From a virus: a DNA stretch of 64,000 bases. The stretch spans positions 10,204 to 74,203 of IMG/VR virus record IMGVR_UViG_3300032331_002826; one strand, given 5' to 3'. A program made the translations under genes and the position numbers. Shown piece by piece: positions 48,547 to 63,920 of the stretch (positions within the stretch are counted from its first letter, which is position 1; the number at the start of each line of letters is the position of its first letter). The notes under the pieces were generated by a model that did no database searches, was not told where the DNA came from, and worked only from the letters and a program-made list of their open reading frames with translations.

Positions 48547-48707
48547 ACAGACTACTCCTCACTTCTATTCTGAGGGGAAGTTAACCCCAAGTCTACCTCA
48601 CGGCGTAGACCGCCTTACTCAAGTTTCGAAACAATTCAAGTTTCTACTTTTATGTCGAGTGCGCCCATGTATCCATACTAAGGGCAATTTATTGAGTCAT
48701 CGTCTGT
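48547..48707 (-). ncRNA. Unclassified multi-stem structured RNA
   Basis: Closing ACAGAC/GUCUGU; internal ACUCAA/UUGAGU, GCCC/GGGC, GUCUAC/GUAGAC, CCUCA/UGAGG; followed by a terminator. Confidence 0.5.
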
Positions 48708-48913
48708 CAAACATCTTCTTCTTCAACTGGATTTTTGATGGTTGGAGAAATTGCTTCAGCTTCTTCTACAACTGCTTTAATCTCATTCTCCAAATCTTTT
48801 ATCTTCTCTTTATATCCAGCGGAGATATCCTTAAAATCTTTCTTAGTGAAGATCAACTTTTCAGTAAGTTCGTAAACTTTCTTTTCTGCTTCTGATTTAG
48901 ATATTGTAACCAT
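48707..48913 (-). CDS. Small coiled-coil protein
   Basis: 68-aa ORF. Confidence 0.6.
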   Translation of the reverse strand: MVTISKSEAEKKVYELTEKLIFTKKDFKDISAGYKEKIKDLENEIKAVVEEAEAISPTIKNPVEEEDV

Positions 48914-48977
48914 TTTAATGTATAACCTTTCTATGTAATAACTATTGGTATGTGTAACTAAACTGTCGGAAAAAAAT

Positions 48978-49368
48978 TGGTGGACGTGGCGGGATTCGAA
49001 CCCGCGTCTTCAAAAATATATTCTACATCAGACTACACGCTTATGAATTTTTTGACCGCACAACAACCATAATCTAAAATCCCAAACTTATGATTGTTTA
49101 TGTTTGTAAGTTTCAACAACATATCCAAACTATATGTCATCAAGCCTGATAGAGTACACCCAACACAATTATCAGACATCGTTGTATTGGATGTGCAGCA
49201 ACTTAAGCTGCGAGTAGTGCAACGTCTTCTCTCTTAGAAGTGAAGTCGTAGCTGATTACTTTGCTTTTCTTAGCATTTATTTTTTGAACAGATGATTAAA
49301 GAGGCCGACCGTTCATCCTCTGCGTGCCTAACATGAACTAATCTTTGAATCGAGACCAGTACACGCCC
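48978..49368 (-). ncRNA. ssrA: tmRNA
   Basis: Acceptor GGGCGUG/CACGUCC-A-CCA with G3:U; T-arm GCGGG UUCGAAU CCCGC; tag AKKSKVISYDFTSKREDVALLAA-stop at 49274..49203. Confidence 0.95.
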
Positions 49369-49394
49369 AAATTTTGAAAGAACAACTATAAGTA

Positions 49395-50024
49395 TCAGAT
49401 CGATTTAGGATCGTATCCGAATTTCATAAATGCATCATGATAGAAATGAGCAACAATGTCAATCTCTTTTTGAGTATAATAACTCTGCCAATCACTTAAC
49501 GTTGGATTGTTTTTATTCCTTCTCAGAATAAACTCGGGTCCAGAACCTCCACTTTCAGTGTAACTATTTTGAACAAGTTGATTTTGAATTATAGATTGAA
49601 CATTCGGATCTTTTAAATCCACAAAAGGAATTTTGGCAAGATCTTCCATATAATTTTCAATCCTAACATAGATGTCTGGTTGTTTTTTGTATGTTAGAAT
49701 TGGAGAAAATTCACCCATTCCTGTCATACCTGATACCCATTCTGGAAAAGTCTGACGTATGATGATATTATTGTTTTCATCGATGTCAAAATTCCTCCAA
49801 TGCCAAACAGATAAAACGTGTGAATATGGATTACGTACATTACATATCACCAAATAATCGTCACACCCCGCCGGTATTCCTATCTCATGAGTTCCTTGCT
49901 CTTTGATGTGACATTGACTTGCAGCGTTGTAAAAATCGTAGTATTCCAAAATGTAAGACATCGATCTACTGGCTGTACGAGGCGGCAACCACCACACCGC
50001 TTTATGTTTATGATTTACAAGCAT
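49395..50024 (-). CDS. Sulfotransferase-family protein
   Basis: PAPS-binding-like PPRTASRS and VRNPYS; YYTQ..I..VA.FY..F..FGY. Confidence 0.8.
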   Translation of the reverse strand: MLVNHKHKAVWWLPPRTASRSMSYILEYYDFYNAASQCHIKEQGTHEIGIPAGCDDYLVICNVRNPYSHVLSVWHWRNFDIDENNNIIIRQTFPEWVSGMTGMGEFSPILTYKKQPDIYVRIENYMEDLAKIPFVDLKDPNVQSIIQNQLVQNSYTESGGSGPEFILRRNKNNPTLSDWQSYYTQKEIDIVAHFYHDAFMKFGYDPKSI

Positions 50025-50105
50025 ATTATGTATCCTATATCGAATACATATGTTTATGTTGAGTAATATTCAGAAAGAAATGTCTGAATTAATATCTAAC
50101 AAATT

Positions 50106-50179
50106 TGGAGCGGGTAGTGGGAATCGAACCCACACATCAACCTTGGCAAGGTCGAAGGCTACCACTACATCATACCCGC
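50106..50179 (-). tRNA. tRNA-Gly(GCC)
   Basis: Cloverleaf, anticodon loop UUGCCAA, U73, CCA. Confidence 0.92.
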
Positions 50180-50191
50180 ATTATTAAAATT

Positions 50192-50267
50192 TGGTGGACC
50201 AGACAGGACTCGAACCTGCCACATTCTGCTTGCAAAGCAGACGCTCTACCAGATGAGCTACTGGCCC
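50192..50267 (-). tRNA. tRNA-Ala(UGC)
   Basis: G3:U70, loop UUUGCAA, CCA. Confidence 0.95.
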
Positions 50268-50400
50268 ATTTAATATCACCAATACATAGTGATAAAAAAT
50301 TGAAAAAAACACAAACCGTGCTATTATACGCTAAAAAGCAATGCGGCACATGCGCCCAAACCCTTACGGAATCCTCCTATCGGGTGTTTGTGTTTTCAAT

Positions 50401-50556
50401 TGGATGACCGTGACTTGCGAATATATGGGGATTTCACGAAAAACGTTCCTAGTATTGAACAGGACATGATCCACTGTTCACCAGTCTATCCCACCAACTT
50501 CAGTCTCTTATACCCTCCCACGGGTATCGTGCATTAATTCTATACACCAACGATCA
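50401..50556 (-). ncRNA. tRNA-like RNA with a large insertion at the T-arm position
   Basis: Acceptor UGAUCGU/ACGGUCA-U-CCA, D-like GUGUA/UGCAC, AUACCC/GGGUAU hairpin, then an insert of about 90 nt. Confidence 0.55.
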
Positions 50557-50561
50557 AATTT

Positions 50562-50918
50562 TTAATCTCCTTTTTGGAGTCGAATACTATCTTCATCAAA
50601 ATGTTGTGTACTGAATTCAAACAACTCAGTGTCTTCAATTGCATACATTTGATGTTTCAGTCCAATTGGAATATGAAAATGGTCACCCTTGTTTAATGCA
50701 ACAGATGTAGACTTATTAATATCATCGTGCCAACCATAATACAATATAATCTTTCCACTTTGGACATAAAATGTTTCATCCTTAATTTTGTGATAGTGCC
50801 AACTACACTTTCGATCCTTCACAAGATAAAGAATCTTGCCACAATACTTTTCATTGTTGACAATCCACTTTTCAAATCCCCATCCCTTCGGTACAATATG
50901 TAATCTTTGGTAATCCAT
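50562..50918 (-). CDS. Cupin-domain protein (sugar isomerase-like)
   Basis: KGWGFE, SWHYHKIKDETFY, IP.G..H. Confidence 0.85.
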   Translation of the reverse strand: MDYQRLHIVPKGWGFEKWIVNNEKYCGKILYLVKDRKCSWHYHKIKDETFYVQSGKIILYYGWHDDINKSTSVALNKGDHFHIPIGLKHQMYAIEDTELFEFSTQHFDEDSIRLQKGD

Positions 50919-62106: not shown

Positions 62107-62229
62107 AAAATGTTTGGTGCTAGTTGATCTGCCAGTTCGTTCTCCTTCGCCAACTACTCACACACACGAAACGATAAAAAGTGCGGTTAACACCAAACAC
62201 TCATATACATAGTGTGTCATTTCTAAAAA

Positions 62230-62306
62230 TGGTGCTGTCGAGAGGAGTCGAACCTCTAACCTGATGATTCGTAGTCATCTGCTCTATCCAATTGAGCTAC
62301 GACAGC
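62230..62306 (-). tRNA. tRNA-Arg(ACG)
   Basis: Loop CUACGAA. Confidence 0.94.
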
Positions 62307-62321
62307 ATTGATCGATCATAG

Positions 62322-63014
62322 TTAACTCACGTATGCAATTACTTCGTATCGTGGGTTAAATTGGTCACCCGAAAGATTTTCCCACGTGAAATTTATTCTG
62401 CTGTTACCAACACTTTCTCCACCCTTCTTGGAAAAAGTCAACAATCTTGTTCCTTTTTGACCTAGAAGAATATCGCCAGTAACCATATCAAGTTCAAATC
62501 CTGCAGCATCCAACGCTTTGGAAATCAATCCAAGTGTGCTCTTAAAACTTTCAAGTTTCTTCAAACCTTTCAATTCAGGAAATACTTCTAGATTTTTTGC
62601 AATCAACTTCTTTTCCTGTGGAGTAATTCGATATCCTTCCACTTTTGCTTCATCATATTGATCTGGTTCATACTCATCCTGATCATTGTAAGAATCCGCC
62701 ACACGATCAAAAATATCGTTCTGTAACTGTTCCAAATCAGAATCGGATAGATCAATCTCTTTGCCAGTTGAATCTTTTACACTTTCAATCTCAATTGACG
62801 CATCTTCATCTGGCTCCAATTGAAGACCCGTTCCACGTTCACGTGCACCACGGGATGCTGGATAATATGTGTATGTTACAGTAACATCAACCTCTTCTTC
62901 AACATCAGTTTCAGGATTGGTGATGGTCAATGTTGTATCAAACACGCTTTCATTCAGATTTTTTCTGAGTTTAAACATGTTGTCGCCGATATTTTCAAAA
63001 AGTTTTTTCTTCAT
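62322..63014 (-). CDS. Hypothetical acidic protein (late-expressed)
   Basis: ORF preceded by TATTTATA at 63022-63029; start set at MKKKLFEN. Confidence 0.65.
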   Translation of the reverse strand: MKKKLFENIGDNMFKLRKNLNESVFDTTLTITNPETDVEEEVDVTVTYTYYPASRGARERGTGLQLEPDEDASIEIESVKDSTGKEIDLSDSDLEQLQNDIFDRVADSYNDQDEYEPDQYDEAKVEGYRITPQEKKLIAKNLEVFPELKGLKKLESFKSTLGLISKALDAAGFELDMVTGDILLGQKGTRLLTFSKKGGESVGNSRINFTWENLSGDQFNPRYEVIAYVS

Positions 63015-63075
63015 ATGTCCATATAAATAGTTGTTATTATACACTTGAACAAAAATTTATATCACAATCAAAAGT

Positions 63076-63152
63076 TGGTGCACCCGGCAGGACTTGAACC
63101 TGCAACCTTCTCGGTAGAAACGAGTTGCTCTATCCAATTGAGCTACGAGTGC
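63076..63152 (-). tRNA. tRNA-Arg(UCU)
   Basis: Loop UUUCUAC. Confidence 0.9.
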
Positions 63153-63159
63153 ATAAAAT

Positions 63160-63233
63160 TGGTTGTCTCTGACGGTAACGCTCCGTCGTCTATCGATTAT
63201 CAGTCGATTGCTCTGCTATTGAGCTAAGAGACA
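63160..63233 (-). tRNA. tRNA-Ile(GAU) with an atypical T-loop
   Basis: Loop CUGAUAA, T-loop AGCGUUA. Confidence 0.82.
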
Positions 63234-63240
63234 ATTAAAA

Positions 63241-63319
63241 TGGCGAGGGTAGCCGGATTCGAACCGAGCAAGTCTGCACAGTGACAGTGTGCGATGTTAA
63301 CCAGTTACACCATACCCCC
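63241..63319 (-). tRNA. tRNA-Asp(GUC)
   Basis: Loop CUGUCAC, G73. Confidence 0.9.
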
Positions 63320-63517
63320 CCAGTAAATTGGATTTTTGAAAGGATTTCACGATAAAATGTGTTCTACATTCGTTAAGGAGTCGCACCTTAAATCTCCCGC
63401 TTTCTTTTTATGGCGGGCGTTCTTCTCTTAAACTACATTCGTATCTATCTTCAAGGAAAAAGTATCAGGAGCGACCCAATACAAACCTTTTTGACTAGCT
63501 TTGTCAAATAACTAAAA

Positions 63518-63592
63518 TGGTAGGACTCCACGGTAACGATCCGTGTTCTACTGGTTAAAAGCCAGTTGCTTCACCGTTAAAGCTTGAATCCC
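63518..63592 (-). tRNA. tRNA-Lys(UUU) with an atypical T-loop
   Basis: Loop CUUUUAA, T-loop AUCGUUA. Confidence 0.83.
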
Positions 63593-63842
63593 ATTGAAAT
63601 TGGTGGGTTCTTTCCCTCTGTCATTCATCGTGGTGCGAGAGTTCATCCTCTACCACTATCGGAGCGAATTGCCGTCGAACTTCTAAATTGGTGCTGTGCT
63701 CTCCACGCCGTCTCTGTGTTTTACCGAATGTACCGGTCGGCAGTCACTTATGGGGTCAGTTACCCATTACTAAATTGGCAGTTAGTTTAATGTGTCTTTA
63801 CACAAAAGATTTAACTACTAACTGTTCAGTGTTAGCTGAAGA

Positions 63843-63920
63843 TGGTGGATGCGGTGGGATTTGAACCCACAACCTTTCGGGTAAGAGCCGAATACTCTGA
63901 TCCAGTTGAGTTACACATCC
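63843..63920 (-). tRNA. tRNA-Lys(CUU)
   Basis: Loop CUCUUAC, canonical structure. Confidence 0.92.

Follow-up and report, generated by a model that had tools for sequence, protein, structure and literature searches.

A freshwater phage tRNA island with a predicted RNase P RNA and conserved tRNA-like RNAs that are probable passengers

We analysed an island of RNA genes in the window, a stretch of 64,000 nucleotides (nt) that makes up the final 64 kb of the 74,203-bp IMG/VR virus record IMGVR_UViG_3300032331_002826. The features of this island, all on the minus strand between 48.5 and 64 kb, are transfer RNA (tRNA) genes, a transfer-messenger RNA (tmRNA), a GOLLD RNA, a predicted RNase P RNA and a set of non-tRNA elements, four of which (E4, E5, E6 and E7a) are conserved in related phages. 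The existence, conservation and structure of these parts and their distribution among relatives are matters of observation; as to how they work together, we consider it reasonably probable that the non-tRNA elements travel as passengers in tRNA operons and owe their maturation to the general tRNA machinery, with the phage ribozyme acting as an accessory booster. A preliminary description of the window had listed RNase P RNA, tmRNA, 32 tRNAs and a giant RNA with a nested tRNA on one strand, and each of these was confirmed. It had further proposed that the phage uses its own RNase P to release cargo or decoy RNAs from polycistronic transcripts, a proposal that is weighed below against several others.

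The source is a large uncultured freshwater phage. Comparison with 50,697 deposited phage genomes returned no close relative of the window. IMG/VR holds 522 relatives of its terminase, including one 67% identical in a complete 296-kb genome (G006), and lake and freshwater metatranscriptome libraries contain contigs near-identical to the window. The record has a CheckV completeness of 28%, and the island is truncated at the contig end, which cuts off a tRNA array that in the syntenic island of another phage (G001) goes on with Phe, Tyr, Asn, Trp and other tRNAs. Every non-coding gap was compared against the syntenic islands of relatives.

The RNase P RNA (288 nt, positions 50926-51213, minus strand) was first recognised by eye from its layout. 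From its architecture, motifs and covariation we conclude that it is an RNase P RNA whose catalytic domain is complete and whose specificity domain has been remodelled; its catalysis is predicted. It does not lie near 48.5 kb, where the preliminary description had begun its system; the stretch there (48523-48977) is not RNase P and instead holds a 68-amino-acid (aa) open reading frame (ORF) and a 184-nt stretch with a terminator. Helices P1, P2, P3, P4 with its bulged U, P5, P15, P16, P17 and P18 are all present. As in type A RNase P RNA, P4 forms between CR-I (GAGGAAAGUCC...) and CR-V (ACAGAA...GGCUUA) and is pseudoknotted with P2, and P1, P3, P5, P15/P16/P17 and a GNRA-capped P18 stand in the canonical order.

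Homologs were collected from G001 (73% identical by BLAST), from eight IMG/VR contigs found by pattern scan and from five metagenome contigs, and every homolog examined sits among tRNA genes. A further seven genome-contig matches and 16 of the 21 metagenome pattern matches were discarded as chance, with no match to R1 (our model of the phage RNase P RNA) and, in the 18 of 23 loci scanned, no Rfam family. When the structure was placed on 10 distinct phage and metagenome sequences, 97.5% of cells were paired and 24 of 59 pairs showed compensatory changes, as against 1-6 in slid controls, and RNAalifold independently recovered P1, P3, the bulged-U P4 and the hairpins. The helices are 85-100% paired with compensatory changes, the exception being an invariant 3-bp P15. 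P4 (8 pairs) is 98.8% paired with 2 compensatory pairs, its bulged U (column 117) being unpaired in 10/10 sequences, while P2 (6 pairs, 2 of them compensatory) is 100% paired. The loop of P18 is GAGA, GUAA, GAAA or GCAA among the homologs. We assigned P5 to a long-range CUGC/GCAG pair flanking the specificity region because two homologs (L105 and L173) change it to GUGA/UCAC, a double compensatory change that excludes a local CUGC-ACA-GCAG hairpin as P5.

Set beside the type A RNase P RNA of Escherichia coli (M1, rnpB; RF00010), the phage RNA has the same order and pairing of P1, P2, P3, bulged-U P4 and P5, as well as the P15/P16 internal loop with GGU and the GNRA-capped P18. CR-I (phage GAGGAAGUUCG versus E. 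coli rnpB GAGGAAAGUCCG), CR-IV (AGAUAAAUG versus AGAUGAAUG) and CR-V (ACAGAACAUCGGCUA versus ACAGAACCCGGCUUA) occupy equal structural places in the two RNAs. Type A RNase P uses the P15/P16 loop position to bind the CCA of its substrates, and in the phage RNAs an AAGGUU that contains the sole GGU of the molecule is invariant in the 3' strand of this loop. The differences are that the RNA is phage-encoded with no RnpA gene nearby, that it is shorter (288 versus 377 nt), that it scores below every Rfam RNase P threshold, that it has an extra hairpin before P18, and that its specificity domain, the region between the P5 strands, measures only ~95-125 nt, comes in three unrelated versions among the homologs and is a module found in another phage RNA too. 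No papers on phage-encoded RNase P RNA were found in the literature, and the relevant passages of a 2024 review of RNase P mention no phage or virus RNase P RNA.

That other phage RNA (237 nt) lies in G006 (G006:234357-234593; L085:1501-1737) behind its own TTTACA-17-TAAGAT promoter, and shares with phage RNase P RNA of the G001 type its specificity-domain-like module (UUGGGAGAA...GUGGAAGCAAGGAGCAGUCCGGUUAAC) but not the CR-I/CR-V core. It may be a derivative of RNase P that has degenerated, or the same module may have been built into a separate RNA. A comparable case is a 120-nt element in G005 (L097:763-882), which is 97.5% identical to the ~100-nt P18 insert of a 410-nt RNase P variant (L099) and stands alone between a tRNA and E7a, where an RNase P core is missing. 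From this stand-alone copy it follows that structured modules move between RNA genes, or that a ribozyme core was deleted around it.

The preliminary description had counted at least six non-tRNA elements with tRNA-like termini or a 3' CCA. There are in fact eight in the window (E4, E4b, E5, E6a, E6, E6c, E7a and E10), but only E4, E5, E6 and E7a passed our comparative tests, and these four are conserved, with covariation pointing to structure in E4, E5 and E7a. No Rfam family matched any of the four, the tRNA model (RF00005) included (E<=1), and ARAGORN was silent on them. The passenger elements are 88-95% identical to their G006 copies although the G006 terminase is only 67% identical.

E4 (168 nt, 57113-57280, minus strand) consists of a tRNA shell with a ~110-nt pseudoknotted insert. 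The shell is built from an acceptor stem of 7 bp, a D arm and a T arm whose loop measures 8-9 nt, and it lacks an anticodon arm. In five distinct sequences 100% of cells are paired and 9 of 36 pairs are compensatory (slid controls 0-2), and the G006 copy is 91% identical. Directly upstream of E4 lies a 68-aa ORF with a signal peptide and repeats (57285-57491), which the preliminary description called PEP-CTERM-like; relatives have a tRNA in its place. E5 (~150 nt, ~58107-58260 with an approximate 5' limit, minus strand) combines an internal pseudoknot domain with a 3' H-type pseudoknot. We found 34 matches in IMG/VR, 18 of them distinct, with 96.5% of cells paired and six compensatory pairs supporting the 3' H-type pseudoknot. 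E5 nearly always stands between tRNA-Glu and tRNA-Met, and the order Lys-Glu-E5-Met-Ile-Leu is kept in many phages; lake metagenomes commonly contain contigs that have this terminase together with E5. E7a (50401-50556, minus strand) resembles a tRNA in its 7-bp acceptor stem, its D arm and its 6-bp anticodon-like arm, but a long arm of variable length replaces the T arm and there is no T loop. Across seven sequences 8 of the 28 predicted pairs are compensatory and the UCCA end is invariant, and the 6-7 nt anticodon-like loop (GUGGGA in the window) varies by copy and is unlike any normal anticodon loop. E6 (80 nt, 63689-63768, minus strand) is near-invariant, with 17 matches in IMG/VR on 12 distinct contigs whose flanks are unrelated and whose ACAGCACCA plus AUUU end is constant.

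The ends of these elements resemble those of the tRNAs among which they lie. CCA followed by an (A)UUU(U) trailer was found in 30 of the 31 free tRNAs and in the tmRNA, and the 31st, a tRNA-Thr seen by Rfam only, fits the same pattern after a 3-nt shift of its coordinates. E4, E5 and E7a share a terminal module made of a 7-8 bp acceptor-like helix (formed in E5 via the pseudoknot), a single unpaired base, a tail of CCA or ACA and a tRNA-type AUUU trailer. In the window E4 closes with U-ACA then AUUU, E5 with its last helix, G-CCA and AUUUU, and E7a with U-CCA then AUU; E6 shares only the CCA plus AUUU end. The short AT-rich linkers of the preliminary description are likewise real, E4, E5 and E7a being set among the tRNAs by tRNA-like U-rich linkers of 4-10 nt, and in relatives E4 and E5 begin 4-5 nt past the CCA of the preceding tRNA. 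Because the acceptor-like helices covary and the linkers are tRNA-like, excision of these RNAs by tRNA-processing enzymes is a reasonable expectation.

Relatives of the phage keep the tRNA mimics without the ribozyme, and the two therefore do not form one interdependent system. R1 found no match in G002 (134 kb), G003, G004 or the complete G006, and no ribozyme at the loci flanking E5 and E6, the RNase P search having covered 8 of the 29 E5-bearing records. G002, G003 and G004 nevertheless have tRNA islands with E3 (a junction RNA described below), E5 and E7a; E7a is present in G002, G004 and G005, where the model finds no phage RNase P; and the complete G006 has E1 and E2 (also described below), E4, E5 and E6, with no RNase P and no GOLLD found. 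The co-occurrence of rnpB with the elements that the preliminary description had set as a test thus failed in part, E5 being found in 18 contigs, E6 in 12 and several elements in G006 with no phage RNase P found. The converse case is G028, in which RNase P and GOLLD are present and BLAST finds no E4, E5 or E6 (the record is 39% complete by CheckV). E7a occurs in phages both with and without RNase P, and in all four RNase P-positive lineages where both were found it lies directly downstream of the RNase P gene, at 7 nt (L098), ~100 nt (L099), ~300 nt (L100) and 370 nt (the window, where a cupin gene at 50562-50918, phrog_7851, annotated 'cysteine dioxygenase', E=4.5e-56, separates the two). A link between GOLLD and RNase P, suggested by the presence of both in G000, G001 and G028 and of neither in G006 and G002, was dropped because G030 has RNase P and E6 nine kb apart and no GOLLD.

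Strong promoter-like sites were located on the minus strand at 63987, 62023, 59571/59481, 57604, 55961, 53018, 51957, 51804 and 49462, terminators at 56903, 55102, 54801, 53065 and 48541, and the RNA clusters are interrupted by protein genes. The island is thus predicted to comprise at least 8 promoter-driven units of sigma-70 type. With at least nine promoter-like sites and five terminators it is not one polycistron.

Several such units would co-transcribe CCA-encoding tRNAs with the tmRNA, GOLLD, the RNase P RNA and at least five other conserved structured RNAs. Each acceptor-like helix would be cut on its 5' side by RNase P, and endo- or exonucleases would trim the RNA at the U-rich trailer, leaving stable ends; tmRNA and the T4 RNAs RNAC and RNAD arise by this route. 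Since none of the five records searched contains an RnpA gene, we infer that the 288-nt RNA most likely borrows the RnpA of the host. It would then add to or retune RNase P capacity during the burst of phage pre-tRNA synthesis, as an accessory gene that was lost or never gained in many relatives retaining the passengers. We favour this reading because the CCA plus AUUU ends, the acceptor-like helices and the 4-10 nt spacing match what is known of pre-tmRNA, T4 and viral RNA processing: RNase P cleaves pre-tmRNA and the pseudoknotted turnip yellow mosaic virus (TYMV) tRNA-like structure, and the (dimeric) precursors of T4 are processed by host RNase P (PMC11143913). A further precedent is the tRNA region of T4, from which the stable RNAs RNAC and RNAD, with no known role, are produced (PMC3014915); there too, non-tRNA stable RNAs lie within a phage tRNA cluster and are made with the tRNAs (PMC3014915, PMC9697503). 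This likeness is one of genomic setting, and the present island holds many more passengers, from at least five conserved families, along with a tmRNA, GOLLD and an RNase P RNA of its own. Another comparison is with the bacterial Y RNAs (YrlA), non-coding RNAs that mimic tRNA with D and T arm modules and are in some cases phage-encoded (PMC4201824). In E4 and E7a, however, the RNA ends form an acceptor stem and not a Ro-binding stem, no Rfam Y RNA matched, and no Ro60 (TROVE, PF05731) gene was found in G000, G001, G002, G006 (complete) or G028.

Several points weigh against the reading of these elements as passengers assisted by a phage ribozyme. Membership of the RNase P family rests on architecture and motifs because neither Rfam nor the phage model scores across: the Rfam RNase P models matched nothing in the window at gathering threshold or E<=1, nor in a 647-nt stretch searched alone at E<=10, RF00010 had no match in the phage's own record, and R1 run with filters off against E. 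coli rnpB gave noise only. No P7-P14 fold with the CR-II/CR-III T-loop motifs emerged between the P5 strands and J2/4 differs among the homologs (ACAGAA, ACAAAA or ACAGGA), for which reasons catalytic competence is only predicted. A promoter-like site (TTGACA-18-GATAAT, 11/12, with an upstream TG) falls within P1-P3 of the RNase P gene (51183-51212); it might drive the downstream cupin gene or be a coincidence. The idea in the preliminary description that tRNA-shaped ends serve as processing tags is reasonable for the acceptor-like helices of E4, E5 and E7a, but CCA is family-wide only in E6 and E7a: the E4 tail is ACA or AAA and never CCA, and that of E5 is CCA in only 3 of the 18 distinct copies and otherwise ACA, AUA, UCG or UAG, and a GGU-dependent RNase P would prefer CCA. 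E6 forms just two small hairpins, with a fold z-score of -0.1 and no convincing fold, and since it lacks an acceptor-like helix it offers nothing obvious for RNase P to recognise. Finally, the RNA data consist of assembled contigs, from which neither transcript ends nor transcription can be proved. They include a 775-nt contig from a freshwater metatranscriptome library spanning GOLLD (58548-59322) with 1 mismatch, a 140-nt metatranscriptome contig with 1 mismatch on part of the RNase P RNA, and more diverged lake and freshwater metatranscriptome contigs over the tmRNA, E4, E5 and E7, which attest presence only.

What the preliminary description proposed, a dedicated system in which the phage's own RNase P frees cargo or decoy RNAs by their tRNA-shaped tags to counter tRNA-targeting host defences, now appears unlikely to us. 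The ribozyme and mimics do share one island, E7a follows the RNase P gene immediately wherever both were found in RNase P-positive contigs, the ribozyme retains the GGU loop predicted to read CCA and E6 and E7a retain CCA, and phage tRNA sets reportedly help to evade anticodon nucleases. Yet E4, E5 and E6 in G006 and E5 and E7a in G002-G005 occur where no phage RNase P was found, the 39%-complete G028 shows the reverse by BLAST, neither the E4 nor the E5 family conserves CCA, and promoters and terminators are several. The decoy role in particular found no backing: E4 has no anticodon arm and the E7a loop is unlike a normal anticodon loop, no tRNA-repair, RNA-repair or defence-related genes were found beside the elements, and no RnpA, Ro60 or CCA-adding enzyme turned up in the records searched. 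A related idea is that the swapped-in specificity module retunes RNase P to phage-specific substrates and that, in addition, the released mimics act as sponges or decoys. The substrates may be tRNAs whose elbows are non-canonical, the GOLLD-nested tRNA or E7a, which adjoins the ribozyme gene, and the sponges may bind host enzymes or defence nucleases for which the shape of a tRNA is the recognition signal; we regard this combination as improbable.

A link to translation is about as doubtful. Here E7a and the window copy of E5 would be aminoacylated at their CCA, and E4 would be a cut-down molecule of tmRNA type. E7a does present its invariant UCCA on a covarying 7-bp acceptor stem, E4 shares the tmRNA layout of acceptor stem, D analogue, pseudoknots in place of the anticodon arm and T arm, and the 3' pseudoknot of E5, H-type and close to the 3' tail, resembles the acceptor pseudoknot of TYMV (PMC11143913). 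Against this, E4 with its ACA/AAA end has no G3:U70 identity pair and no evident tag reading frame, the CCA of E5 is confined to 3 of 18 copies, in contrast to a TYMV-type structure, identity elements are not assignable, and the records searched yielded neither an aminoacyl-tRNA synthetase nor an enzyme that adds CCA; nor did Rfam reveal sequence similarity of E4 or E5 to tmRNA or viral tRNA-like structures. Less probable still is decay, with the extra elements as dying tRNA genes or functionless spacer and the RNase P-like RNA as a relic. E4b, E6a, E6c, E10 and a CyVA-like stretch are indeed confined to the window, and those that were folded do so no better than shuffles, G005 has a possible remnant of an RNase P gene, and many relatives lack the ribozyme. 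However, E4, E5, E6 and E7a are 88-95% identical across phages whose terminases are 67% identical, nearly every helix carries compensatory changes, operon positions are fixed, and the RNase P core covaries across 10 sequences. As judged from this conservation and covariation, decay fails for E4, E5, E6, E7a and the RNase P RNA, and may still account for the window-only spacers.

E4, E5, E6 and E7a extend the question raised by RNAC and RNAD of T4, namely what non-tRNA RNAs do in phage tRNA clusters, and their structures are defined well enough for synthesis and testing. At least four RNA families outside Rfam are conserved like tRNAs over dozens of large freshwater phage contigs, and with the mimics independent of the phage ribozyme, a "closed system" in its simplest form drops out as a model. 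RNase P RNA counts among the core ribozymes of cells, and phage tmRNAs and tRNA arrays are already known; phage RNase P RNAs would bear on how viruses take over tRNA maturation. The phage copies, ~290-410 nt long, in which the catalytic half is intact and the specificity half can be replaced, offer natural material on the purpose of the specificity domain.

The remaining genes of the island, again all on the minus strand, begin with the tmRNA (48978-49368), identified by ARAGORN and by RF00023 (133 bits versus a threshold of 47; 162 bits for its G001 homolog). It has the tRNA-like domain and a tag reading frame, and the tag as read by ARAGORN (AKKSKVISYDFTSKREDVALLAA) ends in ALLAA. The 32 tRNAs comprise 31 found by ARAGORN and one, tRNA-Thr(CGU) at 61490-61566, found by Rfam only (match 61493-61566, 44.5 bits). 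They are arranged as tRNA-Gly(GCC) and tRNA-Ala(UGC) at 50106-50267 (ARAGORN and Rfam); 13 tRNAs including Gln, two Ser, Ala, four Leu, two Pro and Val, with E2 and E3 interspersed, at 51566-52973; tRNA-Leu(CAA) at 56908-56991 (ARAGORN), after which comes a strong terminator (56903-56876); tRNA-Glu, E5, tRNA-Met, a second tRNA-Met (87 nt) and tRNA-Ile(UAU) (94 nt) at 57693-58380; eight tRNAs (Cys, Gln, Thr(CGU), His, Thr and three Arg) with E8 and a CyVA-1-like stretch interspersed at 61321-62306; and five tRNAs (Arg, Ile, Asp and two Lys) with E10, E6c, E6 and E6a interspersed at 63076-63920. Two of them, tRNA-Ile(UAU) (57693-57786) and tRNA-Met(CAU) (57798-57884), have the long variable arms of class II, a shape unexpected for Ile and Met, and an Ile(UAU) of 92-94 nt is present in all related phages examined.

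The giant RNA of the preliminary description is a GOLLD RNA of ~830 nt (58514-59346), with a 3' conserved domain (58514-58977) that matches RF02032 at 203.3 bits (gathering threshold 150, model positions 1-416) and a 5' variable domain whose extent to ~59346 was set by conservation with G001 (86-88% identical). It is preceded by the tandem promoter-like sites at 59571 and 59481. A tRNA-Thr(UGU) without CCA is nested in it at 58840-58913 (ARAGORN and Rfam), and likewise in G001. GOLLD with a tRNA in its linker and near phage tRNA genes has already been described (bioRxiv 10.1101/2024.12.08.627333), and the present copy, with its conserved 3' domain, variable 5' domain and nested tRNA, is an ordinary new member of RF02032.

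Among the other elements, E1 (51482-51557) would be the 33rd tRNA, an aberrant cloverleaf resembling tRNA-Pro(UGG); it has a 3-bp D stem, a UGCGAAA T loop, a covarying T stem and an ACCA end, and is 100% identical in G031, 98% in G001, 94% in G030 and 80% in G006. E3 (51971-52075) is a cloverleaf-shaped four-way junction without CCA (fold z-score -3.2) that was found in five phages, and all three of its hairpins covary. The conservation of E2, E7b, E8 and E0 is limited to one to three relatives. E2 (51740-51821) is an 82-nt conserved spacer with a TTGACT-16-TAAAAT promoter-like site and a covarying hairpin (pairs CCGA/UCGG and GGAC/GUCC), 88% identical in G006. E7b (50303-50396), conserved in G001, in G031 and, at 90% identity, in G030, is a branched RNA with a 12-bp closing stem followed by a U run (z-score -1.8), and looks like a small RNA with its own predicted terminator. 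E8 (61743-61898, 156 nt) has a 9-bp terminal stem and no CCA, a z-score of -1.9 and a 90% identical copy in G001 only, and E0 (48594-48699) is a conserved stretch before the last terminator of the island (48541-48516), 81% identical in G001. E4b (57020-57105), confined to the window, resembles a tRNA in which the T arm is canonical, the anticodon stem is stretched and CCA is missing. No relatives were found by BLAST for E6a, E6c, E10 or E4b, and none were found for E11 or the CyVA-1-like stretch, the latter being sub-threshold at 28.7 versus 41.4 bits. Fold z-scores for E6a, E6c, E10, E11 and the CyVA-1-like stretch (-0.5 to -1.9) are no better than those of shuffles. The non-coding gaps hold 5 cases of CCA with a U-rich trailer as compared to 1.3 +/- 1.1 in shuffles (shuffle maximum 5), a modest excess, and the window-only CCA-ended spacers lack comparative support.

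Outside the RNA genes, the window (GC ~38%) carries genes for a portal protein, a large terminase, proteins of the head and baseplate and several enzymes that modify sugars. Searches for related loci that started from ORF209 and ORF301 yielded nothing of use. Zero depth in the bins of ORF209, GT25 and ORF301 and the apparent ends of contigs or adapters at 48980, 57112 and 57271 were set aside as unusable for judging silence or transcript boundaries. In relatives, Rfam tRNA matches of 100-123 nt (G003:65530-65652, G002:95915-96037 and G006:199599-199721) apparently contain inserts of 30-50 nt, and G001 has a sub-threshold match to the wcaG RNA motif (35 versus 42 bits; L083:11525-11631), flanked by tRNA-Glu and its E5 region. 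Finally, tRNAs with a CUA anticodon, labelled Pyl by ARAGORN, were found at L083:14847-14922 (G001) and L101:336-410, and may be amber suppressors in related phages.

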